10,267 nucleotides of DNA, from positions 1-10,267 of IMG/VR virus record IMGVR_UViG_2660238499_000007; one strand, given 5' to 3'. This DNA is from a virus. Taxonomy: Duplodnaviria > Heunggongvirae > Uroviricota > Caudoviricetes. Shown in pieces: positions 1-7,148 of the stretch (positions are counted from its first letter, which is position 1; each line of letters begins with the position of its first letter). A program made the translations under genes and the position numbers. The notes beneath the pieces were generated by a model, which did not search any database, had not been told where the DNA came from, and worked only from the letters and a program-made list of their open reading frames with translations.

Positions 1-204
1 TCACAAACTCACAAACCAGCAATGAGCCATCACAGGGGGGGGTAGCGACGAGTCGATGACCAGCAGCGCATCTTTCATAATGCCGAAGCGATAGATTGTC
101 TCTGACGCTTTCATGTAGTAGGTAGCATACGGTTTGTGGATGAATCTCTCATCAAGCGACAGGCGGTTCTCAACGTAATCAGCAGCCGGGCTCGGTAATC
201 CCAT
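1..204 (-). CDS. UmuD'-like (LexA/peptidase S24 family) N-terminal fragment; probably frameshifted or a pseudogene at the window edge
   Basis: 67-aa ORF MGLPSPAADYVENRLSLDERFIHKPYATYYMKAS...LLVIDSS aligns with E. coli UmuD from about residue 25 (GFPSPAADYVEQRIDLNQLL..ATYFVKAS..DLLIVDSA), i.e. it starts where UmuD is cleaved to UmuD'. GGAGG lies 6-8 nt upstream of ATG(204) and a LexA box sits just beyond. The frame terminates right after a G8 run (35-42); one alternative frame stays open to position 1. Confidence 0.55.
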   Translation of the reverse strand: MGLPSPAADYVENRLSLDERFIHKPYATYYMKASETIYRFGIMKDALLVIDSSLPPPVMAHCWFVSL

Positions 205-221
205 AACTCACCTCCGATAGT

Positions 222-241
222 TACTGTATATGAACACAGCA
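222..241. promoter_or_regulatory. LexA (SOS) box-like palindrome upstream of the umuD'-like ORF
   Basis: TACTGTATATGAACACAGCA has CTG-N10-CAG with an AT-rich centre, close to the consensus TACTGTATATATATACAGTA; it sits in the promoter position of the minus-strand ORF. Confidence 0.55.
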
Positions 242-404
242 TTGTCGATCGGTGGTGTCGATCAATAGAGATTTGAGTGATAAACTCAGATAATTACGGA
301 AACCTCTGATTGCTCAGCGTTTAGTTACACGTGCTATCTGTTATGCAAGTAGGGGTATTATCTTTTATTAATGCACACTAACTTTGTGCATATACGGAAA
401 TTAT

Positions 405-1553
405 ATGAATAAGATTGATGGTGGCAAGGTTCTTTCGGTCGAGGGTGTGAGGGGGTTGGCCTGCTTGATGGTAGTGCTTTCTCATCTATCAATAATTTTT
501 TTCCCTTACCTGCATACTGGAGACACAAAGATAATTAAGTCTTCTTTTGATGCGGTGACAAGAGATTTACCAATAGGCTTCACTTACTCTGGAACTTCAG
601 CTGTATATATATTCTTTGTATTAAGCGGATATATACTTACAAGTGTTATTTTCAGGTCTGGTTGTATATCTAAGAAGTCCGCAAAGATGCTGCTAGAAAG
701 GTATGTAAGATTATTAATACCAGTTTCGGCATCGATTATTATTTGCGCAATTGTTGTAAATTACTTCCCTTTCAATAAGTATTGGGTTCCGTGGATTTGG
801 TCATTGGGTAAAGATGGTGATTTATCTGTGATAGGAGTTTTAAAAAACTCACTATATGGCTCCATACTCAAAGGTGACTCTTCAATAAATATGGTTACAT
901 GGACTATGCAGGTTGAGTTTTATGGTTCTCTCCTTGTCTTTTTGATATCTCCTATTTCTATCTTTATTAAAAAAGCACCGCTAATATTATCTTTAATCGC
1001 AGTTTTAATCATAATTAACTTTAATGATAAAAATGCATATGGGTACGCATCATTCCTTTTTGGTATGGCTATATGTTTATGCGGATCATATAAGAATAAG
1101 GTTATTGGATATGCAATTCTTATTGCATCACTTTACTTGGCTGGATTTAAATATAATCATTATCTTTACGCATGGTTAAAAGAATTTTCATTATCTATTA
1201 ACAGCATTGAGAAAATAAATTTATACTTGCTTTTCAATCTATTATCTGGAATTGGAGTGGTATATTCCCTATGTAAGATTGGGGTTATGTCATGGTTTTC
1301 TGAATCAAAAATCATGGTCTTTTTAGGAAAGTTATCATTCTCGGCATACTTAATTCAAATGCCTGTATTTTATTGCTTATCAGGGCCAGTTTATCATGAA
1401 TCAAGGAAAATCATGAGCGACTCCAGCGCATGTTTATCAGCTGTTTTAATATCAGTGGTGATGCTTTATGCATGTTCTTACATCTTTTATTTGCTCATCG
1501 ACAGAAAAAGCATCGAGGTTTCCCATAGATTTGCCGCGATCTTTTCAAAGTAA
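405..1553 (+). CDS. Integral-membrane acyltransferase family 3 protein, O-antigen acetyltransferase (Oac/OafA)-like, probable serotype-conversion gene
   Basis: 382 aa from ATG 405 (the track uses an upstream in-frame TTG at 384). N-terminal motif VLSVEGVRGLACLMVVLSHLS matches the family-3 R-x10-H signature; the protein is very hydrophobic with many predicted TM segments; the gene is strongly AT-rich relative to its neighbours and sits next to a tailspike gene as in seroconverting P22/Sf6-type phages. Confidence 0.8.
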   Translation: MNKIDGGKVLSVEGVRGLACLMVVLSHLSIIFFPYLHTGDTKIIKSSFDAVTRDLPIGFTYSGTSAVYIFFVLSGYILTSVIFRSGCISKKSAKMLLERYVRLLIPVSASIIICAIVVNYFPFNKYWVPWIWSLGKDGDLSVIGVLKNSLYGSILKGDSSINMVTWTMQVEFYGSLLVFLISPISIFIKKAPLILSLIAVLIIINFNDKNAYGYASFLFGMAICLCGSYKNKVIGYAILIASLYLAGFKYNHYLYAWLKEFSLSINSIEKINLYLLFNLLSGIGVVYSLCKIGVMSWFSESKIMVFLGKLSFSAYLIQMPVFYCLSGPVYHESRKIMSDSSACLSAVLISVVMLYACSYIFYLLIDRKSIEVSHRFAAIFSK

Positions 1554-1560
1554 AATTAGA

Positions 1561-1582
1561 AGCCATGCGTTAGCGCATGGCT
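1561..1582. terminator. Bidirectional intrinsic terminator between convergent acyltransferase and tailspike genes
   Basis: 9-bp perfect stem AGCCATGCG/CGCATGGCT with a 4-nt loop, flanked by T-rich sequence on the tailspike strand (TCTAATTTTA) and CTTGACCTTT on the plus strand. Confidence 0.6.
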
Positions 1583-1588
1583 TGACCT

Positions 1589-3835
1589 TTAGTAAGAGAT
1601 AGGTATTTCTCCTGTAGAGAAGTTGCCTGCTGCACCTTCCCTGCTGCATAAAGCGAACTTCTTATCAACCACATCCCTTGAGTCTGTAGCAATAATTTCA
1701 TGGCAAATATTATTTGCAGATCTGTGCACGAATGTATTTACAACAGGCTTACTGGACGATGTTCCTTTGGCCCTCGTTCCGTCTATAAGGCAATCAGACA
1801 CCGACATAAGTCCTGAAACTAGGTTATTGCTTGAATCCCAATCTATCAACGACTTATCAAAATACACGCTTCCTAACATATAGGTTGTCCCTCCGGAGTA
1901 ACCAACAAACCTGCGCAGCACTCCACCTTCCAGCCTAATATAGCTGCGAGACATTCCAGACGTAAAGTTCATGAAAGTTATGTCCATATTGCTCTCAAGA
2001 CCATAAAGGCATGATGCATACTCATTCAGGTATCCAATATAAGCTAAAACCTTACAACCAATTGATTTCGCAGGTGTCAGTTTGACTATTGATATTTCTC
2101 TGGAAGTTGAATCATGGTAAGAGATGGCCCACTCAAATCTTGCATTTTTACCATTAAAGGTGCTTCCGGAGAAATCTATAACGCCAGGCATAATGAAATC
2201 ACGAATAATGCTATTTTGTGTCTTAAAATTATTTTTAAATGAAACAATGTTAAGTGTGACTGCGTCAGGCCAGTAGATATTTGTAGATATAATTACATTT
2301 TTTGGCAGATTTAATGCTCTTGGCTGAACAGGGCTACCAGTGGAAACAACATTATCACACCTGCATGTGAAGAGATCTACAAGCCCAGTTTTGTCCGATG
2401 ATATTCTTACCGAACCCCCTTTGACAATAAAATCCCCCTTATGCTCTCCATAGTCAGTGCGAATCCCAAAGGGACCAATATCTGAGTTTATAATCTGCGT
2501 TGATTCATCAAAAGCGCCAGTACCAAAAGCCGCGCCATTAATTATCCTGCAATTGTCTATCAAAACCTTAGACGATCCATAATGAAGATTGAAGCTATCA
2601 ACAGTGCAATCTCTTACCACAGTGTCACGGCTATAATTACCATCAATAGAACGCCACCCTTTCCCAACAACAGTGCTAAAAAAAGAATGCTTCAGAGTAA
2701 ACTCTAGAGTCAATGTGTAGCGAGATTCAGAATCAGGTTGTGTCATCCCCGATGAGCACAAATACCAATTAACACCGTATGTATTACTACTACCAAAAAT
2801 TGCAGAGTTGATGGGTATTACGCCTAAGGTATTATCATAATTAACCCTTACATCAACCATAGACCTTTTGATATCAACAGCCGTGCCAGTAAACGTCCCT
2901 GATAACTTAGGCAATACAGTGACAGTCCTTCGCACAGGCAGCTTATATAAAGTACAGATAAGTGAAGAGTTGTATGTATTCTTAAATGTATACGCTAAAT
3001 CACTTCCTTTGGTTAGTAGGTTAACTTCACCTTTGTATTTTGGCGTGAAAGTGCTGCCAAGCAATCGGTACAAGTCAATTTCAGTACCAGACATCTTAAC
3101 TAAGGAATTATCCCATCCAGTGGTTGACTCTGTAAATGTTAGCGCGGAAGTTAGCTCGTTTAATGGATATGCTGATGGTGTAAAATCTTTAATGTATGTA
3201 GATGCGTCTCTCTCATCAGCATAAACAATCTTACCGCCAGCCAGGTTGAACGTGCAATTGCTGAGATCAAAATCTCCGTATAACGTTGTCTCTTTGTCGA
3301 TAGTGAAAGTCAGTGGCATAGTTGAGTAGATTTTCACTGGAGTTCCTTTAAACTCAGCAAAAACAGAATTCAACTGATCGCTATTTCTTTCACCATCAGC
3401 AGCAGCTATATCGTATACAGAAAGCCTGACCTCTAACCCCCCTATTATTTTGTAACCGTCTGGCGAACTAATTTCATCCATGAACCTTTGCTCAAACTGG
3501 TCAGGGTCATACTTCAGCACATTCGGAAAATAGAACTGCTGAGAACCGTACGCATCGTATACAGCCATAGAATGGCCTTGCACAGTTACGAATTTGGCAA
3601 TCTGTCCGTTATATACAGGATACCCGCCAGCGTTAATGATGATTGGCTGTGCAACAGGAACGTGAGAACCGTCTTCGTTTTCCACATAAACCTGAATCTG
3701 GTTTTCAGGATTTACCGGGTCAGTGCCAATTTTACCGATATAAATTTTGCCATTGGCTACGGCTTTAAAAGAACGAGCCATAGTGAAGAGTTGCGAAGGC
3801 ATGCTTACCACAACATTTGCGGTGATATCTGACAT
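1589..3835 (-). CDS. P22-type tailspike protein (gp9 family) with conserved head-binding N-terminal domain and divergent receptor-binding/enzymatic body
   Basis: 748 aa from ATG at 3835 (CTGGAGCAATGAAATG, GGAG RBS); the track ORF starts 16 codons upstream. The first ~120 aa ([56 protein letters not shown]...[17 protein letters not shown]...[10 protein letters not shown]) match the P22 gp9 head-binding domain as recalled; the rest is Ser/Thr/Gly/Asn-rich as in beta-helix tailspikes but not recognisably P22, Sf6 or HK620. Confidence 0.9.
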
Positions 3836-3956
3836 TTCATTGCTCCAGACGAATGATATGATGCAACCATGATGTGATTGCATACCGAAATGGTACTATT
3901 GAGTATTTATCCAGTAGGTTACGATGCCATTCCACCCAACTGGTGAGGCATCAAGG
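3836..3956. promoter_or_regulatory. Divergent intergenic control region between tailspike and mnt; possible Mnt operator
   Basis: 121-bp spacer between divergent starts. It contains TCCACCCAACTGGTGAGG (about 3931-3948), an imperfect inverted repeat (CACC...GGTG) reminiscent of the P22 Omnt core (GGTCCACGGTGGACC). Promoter hexamers not assigned with confidence. Confidence 0.3.
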
Positions 3957-4217
3957 ATGTACAGCAAATACGACGAGGCGCAGTTTCACTTGAGACTTCC
4001 GCATGAACTTCACGCGAAAATTAAACAGCGTGCGAAGATGAATAACAGGTCGCTGAACTCAGAGATAATTGCAGCGATTGAAGAATCATTGACTAAACAA
4101 AGCTCTGCATCAGTTTACATTGACGATGCAGAGCGTATGGCAGAACAACAATCCGATATGGTAAAGAAAATTGTCTTTGATACGCTCAAAGAGCTATATA
4201 AAAAAGACAGCAGCTAA
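3957..4217 (+). CDS. mnt: Mnt-like ribbon-helix-helix repressor (Arc/Mnt family)
   Basis: 86 aa from ATG 3957 (AGGA RBS; the track ORF begins at an upstream ATG 3924). FHLRLPHELHAKIKQRAKMNNRSLNSEII..IEESL and the C-terminal ERMAEQQSDMVKKIVFDTLKELYKK closely resemble P22 Mnt (FNFRMPMEVREKLKFRAEANGRSMNSELLQIV...ERLADEQSELVKKMVFDTLKDLYKK) as recalled. Confidence 0.8.
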   Translation: MYSKYDEAQFHLRLPHELHAKIKQRAKMNNRSLNSEIIAAIEESLTKQSSASVYIDDAERMAEQQSDMVKKIVFDTLKELYKKDSS

Positions 4218-4224
4218 CTATCAG

Positions 4225-4728
4225 TTACGGAGGATTCCCGATAGGGGGTAAGGGGGTATTTGTATTTATTGTCTTTTGTATATTGTCTTTTGTGTTTGAC
4301 TGATTCGGTAAATTGCTTTTTACCGATTTGGTGAAGGTTTGTTTTACCGAATTGGTAAATGTTTTACCGAATCCGTTAACTTTCGTTTTCCACTCGGAAA
4401 TGTTTGTATTCATACCAACTTGACGCCCCACCTGAATGAGAACTCCCATTCTGATAAGCTCGTTTTTGGCGGTAGAGCATTTGGTTGGTGCCATGCCAGT
4501 GAGTTCAGCGAACTGTTCGTTTCCGATCCAATCTATTTTTTTGTTGTAACCGTATGTCTTGCGCCACACAGCCATAACAATCAGTAACTGATGTAGAGTA
4601 AGTCCAGAAAGCATGGCGGCTTCTAACAGTGTGTTTGCAGTCCGAGTGTAGCCATCTTCGAGTTCTGCCACGCGATGCTCCACGACCTCCAGTTGAGGCC
4701 TGTAATCAGCTAACTTAACGACGCCCAT
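4225..4728 (-). CDS. Lambda-O-like replication initiator, N-terminal iteron-binding domain only (truncated, C-terminal domain absent)
   Basis: 167 aa; residues 20-110 (AELEDGYTRTANTLLEA...LIVMAVWRKTYGYNKKIDWIGNEQFAELTGMAPTKCSTAKNELIRMGVLIQ...GMNTNISEW) parallel lambda O N-terminus (ADLDDGYARLSNMLLEA...LAILRKTYGWNKPMDRITDSQLSEITKLPVKRCNEAKLELVRMNIIKQ...GPNKNISEW). AGGAG RBS before ATG 4728. The ORF runs through the iteron and AT-rich region and stops at 4225, 7 bp from the mnt stop; lambda O is about 299 aa. Confidence 0.75.
   Translation of the reverse strand: MGVVKLADYRPQLEVVEHRVAELEDGYTRTANTLLEAAMLSGLTLHQLLIVMAVWRKTYGYNKKIDWIGNEQFAELTGMAPTKCSTAKNELIRMGVLIQVGRQVGMNTNISEWKTKVNGFGKTFTNSVKQTFTKSVKSNLPNQSNTKDNIQKTINTNTPLPPIGNPP
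4300..4381. repeat. ori-type iterons (four ~18-bp repeats) followed by AT-rich tract, embedded in the O-like gene
   Basis: Four copies of TTTACCGAAT-NN-GGTAAA-like repeats at about 22-bp spacing (ATTCGGTAAATTG; TTTACCGATTTGGTGAA; TTTACCGAATTGGTAAA, a perfect palindrome; TTTACCGAATCCGTTAA), mirrored in the protein as KTFTNSVKQTFTKSVK. An AT-rich AAAGACAATA-repeat stretch lies immediately 3' on the coding strand (about 4255-4300), matching lambda ori organisation. Confidence 0.7.
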
Positions 4729-6388: not shown

Positions 6389-6730
6389 ATGACACAATTT
6401 CAACTTGCATTAATCGCTAGAGAAGTTGATGGAGAAGTCATCCATCTTCGCACCAAAGACGGATACATCAATGCCACCGCGATGTGCAAGTCTGCGGGGA
6501 AGCTACTTGCTGACTATACACGACTAAAAACAACACAAGATTTTTTTGATGAATTATCACGCGATATGGGGATTCCCATATCGGAGTTAATTCAATCATT
6601 TAAAGGCGGAAGAGCAGAGAATCAAGGGACTTGGGTTCATCCAGACATCGCAATTAATTTAGCTCAGTGGCTATCTCCAAAATTTGCAGTGCAAGTATCG
6701 AGATGGGTGCGTGAGTGGATGTCAGGTTAA
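6389..6730 (+). CDS. KilA-N domain protein (113 aa) in the cI-downstream accessory locus
   Basis: YINATAMCKSAGKLLADYTRLKTTQDFFDELS...GTWVHPDIAINLAQWLSPKFAVQVSRWV matches the KilA-N/APSES-type DNA-binding signature (NATxxCKxxGK ... GTWVHPxxAxxLAxWxSPxF) as I recall it. It occupies the locus lambda uses for rexAB. An in-frame TAA at 6728-6730 separates it from the next ORF. Confidence 0.55.
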   Translation: MTQFQLALIAREVDGEVIHLRTKDGYINATAMCKSAGKLLADYTRLKTTQDFFDELSRDMGIPISELIQSFKGGRAENQGTWVHPDIAINLAQWLSPKFAVQVSRWVREWMSG

Positions 6731-6769
6731 AGAGCGCCTGCCGAACTCCCTATCCACCTTAAGCGGTAT

Positions 6770-7148
6770 ATGACAAACCGAGGCAGAGTTCCTCATACGC
6801 ACTTTTCTATGCTTAATGAACTGACGTTTAACTTGGTTGCGCCACTTGAACAGGCCGGATATACGCTGCCAGAAAAAATGGTCCCTGATATTTCAGAGGG
6901 TAGGGTTTTCTCGCAATGGCTCCGTGACAACCGGGGGGTTGAGCCGAAGACATTCCCAACATATAACCATGAGTACCCAGATGGCCGGACATTCCCGGTA
7001 CGTCTATACCCAAACGAATATTGCAGATTTCAAACAATACTTCAACGAAGTGTGGCTGCCTCAGTACGCTCCTAAATATTTTGCTGAACGAGACCAAAGG
7101 GCATTGACGTTGATTGAGAAAATCATGCTACCTGACCTTGATTCCTAA
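6770..7148 (+). pseudogene. Hypothetical gene downstream of KilA-N, apparently disrupted by a frameshift near 7000-7025 (possible original C-terminal part of the KilA-N protein)
   Basis: The frame opening at 6770 (MTNRGRVPHTHFSMLNELTFNLVAPLEQAGY...YPDGRTFPVRLYPNEY) is the same frame as the KilA-N ORF, separated by one stop. It ends at 7075, but a second frame continues with protein-like sequence (..IADFKQYFNEVWLPQYAPKYFAERDQRALTLIEKIMLPDLDS) to a stop at 7146-7148 that is followed directly by an intrinsic terminator. Confidence 0.4.

Follow-up and report, generated by a model that had tools for sequence, protein, structure and literature searches.

The window analysed here is a stretch of viral DNA of 10,267 nucleotides in which two intact genes were confirmed: an AT3-family acyltransferase gene on the plus strand and, convergent with it, a tailspike gene on the minus strand (Table 1). 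The remaining reading frames comprise mnt, a truncated O, cII, cro, cI, a split BstA, a truncated RecT, small early-region ORFs, an excisionase-like gene and integrase fragments; a tRNA scan of the window returned none. The tailspike is the sole virion gene found in the window, as a sequence-only reading of the DNA had already noted. Its protein is on record in identical form in E. coli GCA_001484475.1, on contig LLYL01000055.1, which matches the window at 100%. The host of the window, ccpm5172 (AZ72), is a commensal E. coli isolated from a healthy student (PMC7133007), and the O-antigen cluster is absent from its 19-kb contig. At one edge lies a HumD/UmuD-like fragment that accompanies the acyltransferase gene and adjoins it in four of the loci compared (L001, L002, L007 and L029); a G8 tract inside this fragment, at 35-42, reads G8 or G9 among the copies compared. 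On the far side of the tailspike, the mnt ORF is extendable to an ATG at 3924, and the loci L001, L002 and L004, which carry the same module, call a protein of 86 aa.

Table 1. Features of the acyltransferase/tailspike segment, with positions in the window.
Feature	Position	Strand	Evidence or description
Truncated HumD/UmuD-like gene fragment, 67 aa	1..204	-	NF051876, E 7.1e-23, profile positions 1-55 of 129
AT3-family integral-membrane acyltransferase, 382 aa	405..1553	+	PF01757, E 2.2e-25, 323/326 profile positions
Hairpin between the convergent stop codons	1560..1583	.	10-bp stem, 6 GC pairs, loop of 4
Tailspike receptor-binding body, ~residues 131-748	1589..3445	-	Predicted right-handed parallel beta-helix depolymerase, uncharacterised family
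Tailspike N-terminal P22/Sf6-type head-binding domain, residues 1-113	3497..3835	-	PF09008, E 2.7e-66
Spacer between the divergent tailspike and mnt genes, 121 nt	3836..3956	.	9-nt inverted repeat 3861-3883
mnt-type Arc/Mnt repressor, 86 aa	3957..4217	+	PF03869, E 8.6e-15; PF11423, E 3.4e-14
Replication protein O, N-terminal fragment, 167 aa	4225..4728	-	PF04492, E 1.4e-36

The longest reading frame of the acyltransferase gene (384-1553) opens at a TTG and encodes 389 aa, while homologues and database gene calls start at the ATG at 405 and give a protein of 382 aa. PF01757, the sole Pfam match, spans residues 18-361 of the 389-aa ORF and profile positions 3-325 of 326, i.e., a full-length Acyl_transf_3 domain that lacks a fused SGNH domain. 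The gene has a GC content of 34.1%, against 40-45% in the adjacent phage genes, which agrees with its earlier description as a convergent, AT-rich family-3 acyltransferase. The protein carries the motifs R16-X10-H27 and FFVLSGY (70-76), and residues R16, H27, F70, F71, S74, G75, R99, R102, W166, T167 and E171 are conserved without exception in 21 homologues, Sf6 Oac among them. In mutagenesis studies of Oac and OafA, R/K-X10-H, FFxxSG[YF] and the arginines that follow are reportedly the functional motifs. A simple hydropathy scan gave ~7-8 clear peaks, where ~10 transmembrane helices are expected of an Oac-type AT3 protein. The NCBIfam search yielded no equivalog match, and the sequence search for solved structures found no relative. 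The identical 382-aa protein is present on at least 24 contigs; in L001, where the neighbouring virion genes are intact, the gene is frameshifted at a T tract.

The acyltransferase and tailspike genes end 35 nt apart, and the hairpin between their stop codons (dG -17.4 kcal/mol, z -4.17) is more stable than all of 200 shuffled sequences. With its T-rich tail on the tailspike strand, it is probably an intrinsic terminator shared by both genes. In the 121-nt spacer upstream of the tailspike, no sigma-70-like site faces that gene on the minus strand, and one weak site of this type lies on the plus strand at 3829-3857; the inverted repeat of this spacer is a possible operator.

The tailspike reading frame extends over 1589-3883 (764 aa), but the true start is the ATG at 3835, which gives 748 aa (MSDITANVV...), as in every homologue. 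In the PDB sequence search, Sf6 gp14 aligned to residues 1-126 (E 5.4e-64) and P22 gp9 at E ~1e-49, the Sf6 and P22 chains together matching the N-terminus at E 5e-64 to 1e-44. These alignments and the PF09008 domain bear out the P22-like head-binding domain proposed from the sequence. The domain, the predicted right-handed parallel beta-helix of the body and the position of the gene are those of a P22-like (Lederbergvirus) tailspike; in relatives, the tailspike gene closes the virion block, following the ejection genes and mnt, with the conversion genes and int beside it.

Beyond the head-binding domain, the sequence resemblance to characterised tailspikes ends. Matches in Pfam, PHROGs, NCBIfam, and PDB sequence and profile searches are confined to the N-terminal part, and the tblastn matches of HK620, Sf101, CUS-3 and IME10 stop at residues 116-134. 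The PDB searches and tblastn thus found no homology of the body to the characterised enzymes of P22, Sf6, HK620 or CUS-3, so that the sequence-only reading was right not to recognise the body as the P22, Sf6 or HK620 enzyme. Structure prediction, which that reading had proposed as a check, returned a right-handed beta-helix in a monomer model. The structural neighbours of the modelled body are Acinetobacter AP22 gp54, Klebsiella K64-ORF41, Pseudomonas LKA1 gp49, phi297 gp61 and a K1 lyase; most of the best ones (AP22 gp54, K64-ORF41 and the K1 lyase) degrade capsules. Because these neighbours include both lyases and hydrolases, the fold alone does not fix the chemistry of the body. AP22 gp54, K64-ORF41, LKA1 gp49 and phi297 gp61 have only 9-12% sequence identity to the body, and their substrates are capsules or Pseudomonas O-antigen. 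One of these top neighbours, LKA1 gp49, is known as an O-antigen-specific enzyme.

True sequence homologues of the body are found in the spikes of phages vB_EcoM_ECO1230-10 (67% identity), P433.1 (59%), Paul (54%) and Proteus phage PM16 (41%), over ~80-85% of the protein. They share invariant motifs with it, and the invariant residues are concentrated at positions 393-467, among which candidate active-site residues may lie, judging from this conservation. These spikes differ from the one described here in their N-terminal adaptors (e.g., PF18668), in belonging to other phage types, some of them lytic, and in having no acyltransferase. No published biochemical activity or receptor was found in the literature for any of the four, none of which is mentioned in the main text or supplements of Pas et al. 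2023; the high identity to a characterised tailspike that could have overturned the earlier view of the body was therefore not observed. Two assayed or named depolymerases were considered as characterised homologues and set aside. Dpo42 of vB_EcoM_ECOO78, a phage related to ECO1230-10 at the genome level, has been expressed and assayed, but its C-terminus, read from the published reverse primer, is ...AIYGLI instead of ...GEIPISY, and ECOO78 is not among the body matches; the depolymerase described from Proteus phage vB_PmiS_PM-CJR is not the same protein. In the whole database, the body family comprises only 41 clusters; its members occur in E. coli, Enterobacter and Proteus and are joined to four or more types of adaptor. 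No relative of the body was confirmed when species-representative genomes were scanned. Neither the window's body allele nor its acyltransferase was found by megablast and blastn in 5,426 complete E. coli genomes, where a sister body allele (69% nucleotide identity) turned up in three records only, from two strains.

The arrangement of the segment is that of Shigella phage Sf6 (gene 14/oac), whose tailspike has the same head-binding domain over residues 1-126. Sf6 and the relatives L001, L007 and L029 (at argW) share the order of tailspike, short spacer with terminator, convergent AT3 acyltransferase, then integrase and attP, and a terminator is annotated in Sf6 at the position matching the hairpin described above. 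The layout of a seroconverting phage, suggested from the sequence, is indeed found here, and the acyltransferase is a putative lysogenic-conversion moron in the oac position of Sf6. Both Sf6 Oac and the present acyltransferase carry the R-X10-H, FFxxSG and arginine motifs. However, Oac has 333 aa and only 30% identity to the 382-aa protein over 99 residues, the Sf6 endorhamnosidase is unrelated in sequence to the body, and, unlike in Sf6, the truncated HumD-like fragment lies between the acyltransferase gene and int.

In the case of Salmonella phage P22, the shared features are the gp9 head-binding domain, mnt upstream of the tailspike, a right-handed beta-helix body (here predicted) and a downstream module for surface-glycan modification (here putative). 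The bodies cannot be aligned by sequence, and the modifying enzyme of P22 is a gtrABC glucosylation cassette instead of an acyltransferase. The immI region of P22 consists of mnt-arc-ant; arc and ant are missing here, so that mnt is directly divergent from the tailspike. Another P22-like temperate coliphage, Kapi1 (a Lederbergvirus at argW of host MP1), uses the O-antigen as its receptor and alters the LPS of its host, and its tailspike also joins a conserved head-binding domain to a body that has no database relatives (PMC8787464). The Kapi1 tailspike is 68% identical to the present one over the N-terminal 165 residues, and the bodies are unrelated; in Kapi1, no gene could be recognised as a conversion gene, in contrast to the clear AT3 gene here.

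The history of the segment can be read from its relatives. Positions 1-4236 of the window are 99.6-99.7% identical to L001 and L002, prophages that keep the neighbouring head and tail genes and have coat, tail-accessory and ejection genes upstream of mnt. In L001, L002 and L007, the gene order is coat, then homologues of gp4, gp10, gp26, gp14, gp7, gp20 and gp16, followed by mnt, tailspike and acyltransferase; int comes next in L001 and L007. Homology to L001 and L002 stops at 4236, with divergence from 4237 exactly. A deletion at this point joins the mnt flank to the truncated replication gene O, everything upstream of mnt being gone, and given this junction the last codons and the stop of the O fragment derive from the mnt flank. 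The same junction is present in L005 and L011, which places the deletion derivative in at least three samples. Since the identity among 11 copies of the module ranges from 98.8 to 99.95%, the remnant falls inside the diversity of circulating phages. The deletion is young, because the module is still 99.7% identical to copies in prophages with adjacent virion genes. As the late-operon side upstream of mnt is deleted, the late promoter and its activator have presumably been lost as well.

The tailspike body and the acyltransferase also recur together outside this lineage. The acyltransferase of L029 is the same (380/382 aa, ~99.5% at the nucleotide level), yet it stands beside a body only 72% identical; relative to the window, identity breaks at ~1650 and ~3300. 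In L017, from E. hormaechei, an acyltransferase of 70% identity is convergent with an 843-aa spike whose body aligns over 663 residues at 82% identity, or at 86-88% when the body alone is compared. The phage that carries this pair has another N-terminal adaptor and a lysis cassette nearby. Because the same acyltransferase goes with a 72% body in one case and a 70% homologue with an 82-88% body in the other, the pair moves as a cassette. The association thus extends to independent backbones, since it occurs with two body alleles in P22-like phages of E. coli and again in a phage of E. hormaechei, and it is not obligatory: the acyltransferase is absent beside the sister body allele in L006 and L032 and beside an 844-aa form in L028, and in another E. 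hormaechei locus (L030) the corresponding place beside a 57% body is taken by a convergent gtrABC-type cassette. A 43% acyltransferase homologue in Proteus was rejected as a third example, as the spike next to it is unrelated. By sequence comparison, body and acyltransferase thus appear to pass between phage backbones as a loosely linked cassette.

Altogether, these findings make it probable that the receptor module of a P22/Sf6-like temperate phage (Lederbergvirus) survives in this segment, that a likely glycan-cleaving tailspike is paired in it with a masking acyltransferase, and that the tailspike has become a silent passenger after a recent deletion. In this model, tailspike residues 1 to ~115 would form the conserved adaptor that plugs into a P22-type tail, and residues ~130-748 an interchangeable right-handed beta-helix whose most probable role is to bind and cleave a polysaccharide of the host surface, with the O-antigen as the likeliest target. 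The AT3 membrane enzyme resembles Oac and retains every motif of its family; most probably it is made in the lysogen and acylates the same glycan, which would impair the adsorption of phages with this type of body, as receptor masking or seroconversion. A single deletion would recently have removed the replication, lysis and morphogenesis genes of the prophage. In the resulting remnant, the acyltransferase may still act, while the tailspike is most probably silent and has had too little time to decay.

It could be objected that the two genes are neighbours by accident, the acyltransferase being a generic moron that occupies the customary insertion site between the tailspike and integrase genes and is functionally unconnected to the body. 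Its absence in L006, L032 and L028, the gtrABC genes that fill the slot in L030 and the Proteus homologue beside an unrelated spike would fit such an account, as would the discordant phylogenies of acyltransferase and body. However, every placeable acyltransferase of at least 70% identity adjoins a body of the same family, on two unrelated backbones and in two host genera; such pairing is hard to explain without a link when the body family has so few clusters, and incidental adjacency is quite improbable. If a link is accepted, the shared glycan need not be serogroup-specific: spike and acyltransferase may act on enterobacterial common antigen, colanic acid, capsule or the LPS core, in which case the module would fall short of a strict seroconversion pair. 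The receptor-binding allele did not track host O-serogroup in the two typed hosts, both of which carry the sister allele. Sister spikes 97% identical to each other occur in an O54 and an O174 host, whose O-antigen gene clusters differ in sugar-pathway genes (rmlBDAC is present in the O54 cluster and missing from that of O174), which sits ill with strict O-serogroup specificity, and the colanic acid clusters of both hosts are complete or nearly so. Pas et al. (PMC10408124) regard receptor-binding subtypes that recur in several serogroups as probably not specific for O-antigen. The spread of the body family over E. coli, Enterobacter and Proteus, and its capsule-depolymerase neighbours, point the same way. 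Against this, only two hosts are typed, their sister allele is just 72% identical to that of the window, O-antigen clusters are often exchanged after lysogeny, and the characterised P22-like phages with a convergent modifying gene, Sf6 and P22, use the O-antigen; the O-antigen specificity of LKA1 gp49 also runs counter to a non-serogroup glycan, which has a modest chance of being the target. A more definite version, in which the body family targets a glycan common to Enterobacterales serogroups and genera (e.g., enterobacterial common antigen or colanic acid) and the AT3 protein is the acetylase that masks it, seems unlikely. In a related reading, the two body alleles found beside the same acyltransferase may be an arms-race pair, one of them recognising the acylated form.

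It has also been suggested, in the sequence-only reading, that retention of a tailspike in a prophage unable to build particles is unexpected and may reflect a cell-associated role. Selection could keep the gene for polysaccharide trimming or biofilm functions, or for donation of the protein to a co-resident P22-like phage whose host range it would alter. The reading frame is indeed full length and undamaged, whereas O, BstA, RecT and int of the same remnant are truncated or frameshifted, and the deletion derivative recurs in several samples. Moreover, Pantoea WceF (PDB 6tgf), to which the N-terminal domain is matched at E 1.1e-12, is a precedent for an enzyme of tailspike fold that serves the cell. 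Yet the near-identity to copies with adjacent virion genes leaves little time for decay, so that retention needs no special explanation, and another remnant (L010) has kept the acyltransferase and lost all of the tailspike but its last 66 codons. The deletion lineage has acquired four substitutions, each of them non-synonymous, two in the tailspike and one (R99M, in the acyltransferase of L005) at an invariant residue; this excess is counted over just four changes, of which two are G-to-T in one metagenome scaffold and could be errors. The first 26 tailspike residues, judged by eye, do not resemble a signal peptide; the late-gene region is deleted, the spacer holds no promoter-like site facing the tailspike, and an intact Mnt repressor gene adjoins it. 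Judging from the sequence, the tailspike could be transcribed by one path only, SOS-dependent read-through that would start at the rightward early promoter and pass through cro, cII and the truncated O. Nothing found here points to a cellular role, which is very improbable, and the evidence favours simple recency of the deletion over a tailspike kept for the cell's own use.

As the receptor module of a P22/Sf6-like phage, the tailspike/acyltransferase pair is ordinary in kind, while its body family is itself uncharacterised. Had a defective prophage kept a tailspike for its cell, this would have been the interesting part, if true. The segment adds an uncharacterised receptor-binding family and a likely masking enzyme to the catalogue from which coliphage host range is predicted or engineered. 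Because the family is small and combines its several adaptor types with a range of three genera, it offers a tidy case for module exchange. A near-identical acyltransferase stands beside two body alleles that have diverged, and one allele occurs in both O54 and O174 hosts; these observations raise concrete questions about the receptor that these phages use.

The window is identical to contig LLYL01000055.1 of E. coli GCA_001484475.1, the assembly of strain ccpm5172 (AZ72), which a healthy student carried as a commensal (PMC7133007). Positions 384-3883 are occupied by two long, convergent ORFs whose stop codons are spaced by 35 nt. The sequence-only reading had described them as an AT-rich family-3 acyltransferase convergent with a tailspike carrying a P22-like head-binding N-terminus, and the domain matches tabulated here bear out both descriptions. 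The acyltransferase, started at ATG 405 as in database entries and gene calls, has a GC content of 34.1%, against 40-45% in the phage genes around it. The layout is that of Sf6, where the tailspike, an annotated terminator and the convergent oac are followed by int. The arrangement is thus of the same kind as in Sf6 and P22, namely a modular tailspike with a surface-glycan-modifying moron downstream. Kapi1 offers a comparable E. coli case, with an unrecognised tailspike body (PMC8787464).

Features of the module and of the decayed regions (positions in the window unless given as residues)
Feature	Position	Strand	Details
AT3 acyltransferase	start ATG 405; longest ORF from 384	+	382 aa; PF01757, E 2.2e-25, 323/326 profile positions
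Hairpin between the stop codons	1560-1583		T-rich tail on tailspike strand; 10-bp stem, dG -17.4 kcal/mol, z -4.2
Tailspike	start ATG 3835; ORF extendable to ATG 3883	-	748 aa; start as in all homologues and the Pfam domain
Tailspike head-binding domain, P22-type	residues 1-113	-	PF09008, E 2.7e-66; Sf6 gp14 aligned over residues 1-126
O fragment	stop at 4225	-	167 aa, read across the junction; PF04492, E 1.4e-36
Inverted repeat inside truncated O	4319-4359		18-bp stem; TTTACCGA(A/T)TTGGT(A/G)AA-like units; flagged terminator-like
KilA-N ORF and two overlapping ORFs	6389-6730; 6770-7075, 6837-7148		jointly match one BstA (phrog_6287, profile positions 164-301/304)
RecT-like recombinase	7741-8076		cut to 111 aa; phrog_148, profile positions 28-132/387
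Split integrase	9433-10267		overlapping ORFs 9870-10121 and 9433-9906

Searches of the tailspike in Pfam, NCBIfam, PHROGs, PDB sequences and PDB profiles (the last with a profile from 29 homologues) matched its N-terminal part only, so that the body was correctly described as not recognisable as the P22, Sf6 or HK620 enzymes. Nor is the body an orphan. It is found by tblastn in four phages, vB_EcoM_ECO1230-10 (67%, annotated as a tail spike), vB_EcolP_P433.1 (59%), Paul (54%) and Proteus phage PM16 (41%). Across 5.8 billion proteins, a search with the body alone returned only 41 clusters at 90% identity, with E. coli, Enterobacter hormaechei and Proteus mirabilis as hosts and distant matches in Vibrio, and at least four types of N-terminal adaptor are fused to this family. 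No biochemical characterisation of any member was found in the literature. In an AlphaFold2 model from a 29-sequence alignment, the body is confident (pLDDT mostly 80-97 from residue 140), while the N-terminal domain scores low because adaptors are mixed in the alignment. The model predicts a right-handed parallel beta-helix of the depolymerase type, the fold that the sequence-only reading had proposed to look for. Since lyases and hydrolases alike occur among its structural neighbours, the fold does not fix the chemistry. Invariant residues, D398, R403, H418, Y419, E444, R459, D461, Y462, E464 and K466 among them, cluster at 393-467, a candidate active-site groove region. The protein has the adaptor, fold and position of a P22-type tailspike, with a body that shows no homology to any characterised one.

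The acyltransferase (ACYLTRANSFERASE) has both the domain and the motifs of an Oac-type AT3 protein. R16-X10-H27 and FFVLSGY (70-76) are present, and R16, H27, F70, F71, S74, G75, R99, R102, W166, T167 and E171 are invariant in 21 homologues, including Sf6 Oac. Mutagenesis of Oac and OafA has established a histidine and arginines as functionally critical positions; as these are kept, the enzyme looks active. Its relationship to Sf6 Oac is distant (30% over 99 residues), GenBank phages give a single weak match (Pantoea PA-1, 29%), and no solved structural relative was found. A search of 5,426 complete E. coli genomes turned up neither the acyltransferase nor the tailspike allele of the window; the identical acyltransferase protein is found in 139 indexed blocks of a larger assembly collection, on at least 24 contigs.

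How tightly the two genes belong together can be judged from their relatives, three of which speak for a functional link. In L029, which carries a sister allele of the tailspike, the acyltransferase is identical at 380/382 residues (about 99.5% in nucleotides) and the head-binding domain at about 95%, with a body at 72% protein identity. Nucleotide identity to the window drops to 59-75% between about 1650 and 3300. The boundaries are sharp, with 97-100% over the last 20 or so tailspike codons, the terminator and the acyltransferase, and 93-97% over the head-binding domain. We read this difference as a clean cassette swap with conserved flanks on either side. In E. hormaechei L017, an acyltransferase 70% identical to that of the window is convergent with an 843-aa spike, whose body aligns over 663 residues at 82% identity (86-88% for the body alone); this spike is on a different adaptor and adjoins a holin/endolysin cassette. 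In L030, an E. hormaechei prophage, a 57% identical body accompanies a myovirus-type baseplate and is convergent with a gtrA, gtrB, gtrC-like glucosylation cassette. Against such a link, no modifying gene accompanies the sister allele in either of the complete genomes L006 (bio site) and L032 (argW), and none accompanies the 844-aa E. coli form of the spike. Also counter to a functional link, the acyltransferase of L001, an E. coli prophage with a near-identical module, is frameshifted (T6 against T7 at 496-502), and a Proteus acyltransferase, 43% identical, adjoins an unrelated spike. We read the pair as a cassette with loose linkage, placed where morons usually insert; this would fit receptor masking without proving it.

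Several further observations concern this slot. The frameshifted L001 acyltransferase is called as 332 aa, without the first helix that bears the conserved histidine. The G8 run (35-42) of the HumD fragment, a truncated HumD/UmuD-like gene, is G9 in L001; both run-length differences could be slipped-strand variation or assembly errors. In L030 (7320-10699), a full-length 129-aa S24-peptidase (HumD-like) gene follows the gtrA, gtrB and gtrC-like genes and is 77% identical in nucleotides to the HumD fragment (window 9-290); the proximity of a HumD-like gene to the modification slot seems to be conserved. Judging by accession series in the cluster of P0011, some E. coli assemblies may have 844-aa and 749-aa tailspikes of one 90% body cluster on a single 687-kb contig. 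If so, two prophage types would share a receptor-binding body in one host.

Two E. coli prophages, L001 and L002, match window 1-4236 at 99.6-99.7% identity and have scaffold, coat, gp4, gp10, gp26, gp14, gp7, gp20 and gp16 homologues upstream of mnt; the flanks covered extend as far as this block, short of where terminase, lysis and replication genes would lie. Homology ends exactly at 4236. Past this point, mnt is followed in L001 and L002 by a ribosome-binding site and an ORF for a small membrane protein, and in the window by the interior of replication gene O. A single deletion would have taken the rest of O and of the replication block, the lysis genes, late regulation and every virion gene but the tailspike, an extent drawn from normal P22-like gene order rather than a sequenced full-length parent. 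The tailspike is indeed the only virion gene in the window.

Its persistence had been called unexpected, raising the question of whether it is expressed and has a cell-associated role; the comparisons support neither selective retention nor such a role. The identical junction is also found in metagenome scaffold L005 and contig L011. Since 11 copies of the module are 98.8-99.95% identical to the window, the remnant falls within the range of variation among phages in circulation, and its deletion is young. The four substitutions of the deletion lineage are all non-synonymous: tailspike A319V (L011) and I306T (window and L005), and acyltransferase C87F and R99M (L005), the last at an invariant arginine. 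Changes in copies outside this lineage are mostly synonymous. The pattern leans towards relaxed constraint rather than selection, on counts too small for a test. L010 (4596-7745), a second, independent remnant at argW, contains intS, the HumD fragment, an intact acyltransferase, two small ORFs, torI and dsdC. Of the tailspike it retains no more than the final 199 nt, which indicates that this gene is dispensable in remnants.

As regards expression, the late promoter and activator would have been lost with the region deleted upstream of mnt. A consensus scan of the 121-nt spacer between tailspike and mnt gave nothing sigma-70-like on the tailspike strand, and mnt, directly divergent from the tailspike, encodes an intact Mnt-type repressor. 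The sole evident route to tailspike transcription is predicted to be read-through from the cI-repressed rightward early promoter, which would pass cro, cII and the O fragment, then run antisense to mnt into the tailspike.

Decay extends elsewhere. The ORFs at 6389-7148 appear to be one frameshifted bstA, which immediately follows the cI repressor gene; BstA is an abortive-infection protein. Window 10123-10267 is 98% identical to L003 (strain EC2641) 9001-9145, just upstream of and into an annotated IS3-family transposase gene, and the integrase appears both frameshifted and interrupted by an IS. The contig continues for about 295 bp beyond the window and then ends. The inverted repeat in O, just past which the deletion endpoint lies, more probably represents origin iterons than a terminator. 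No N-type antiterminator ORF was noticed in passing between the BstA remnant and the RecT fragment, and the early-left region may have undergone further deletions.

As for the receptor, O-typing covered the only complete genomes with a body-family member, those of two strains (L006, NZ_CP141863.1, and L032, NZ_CP149449.1), whose sister-allele tailspikes are 97% identical to each other. In strain numer 3, from a pigeon, wzx and wzy carry O54-family annotations and are accompanied by rmlBDAC; in strain JX21CE33, from a chicken, both genes carry O174-family annotations and rml genes are absent. The 14 genomes with the O54 wzy do not include JX21CE33. Either the O-antigen cluster was swapped after lysogeny, or the body family reads something besides the serogroup-specific repeat; the latter is what Pas et al. 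conclude, as probable, for receptor-binding subtypes that occur in several serogroups (PMC10408124). With two hosts and an allele 72% identical to that of the window, the mismatch bears on the window's own allele only as a caution. In L004 and L031, the remnant adjoins dacD, with sbmC, yeeA and cob genes further on; a reference layout puts the start of dacD some 18.6 kb from the end of gnd, which lies at the edge of the O-antigen gene cluster. From a place near dacD, a prophage that modifies the receptor could be transferred together with the O-antigen locus.

Altogether, the module is of the known Sf6/P22 kind, and neither selective retention nor a cellular role is supported. Its interest lies mainly in the small, uncharacterised family to which the body belongs, in how neatly cassettes have been exchanged, and in the O54/O174 puzzle.
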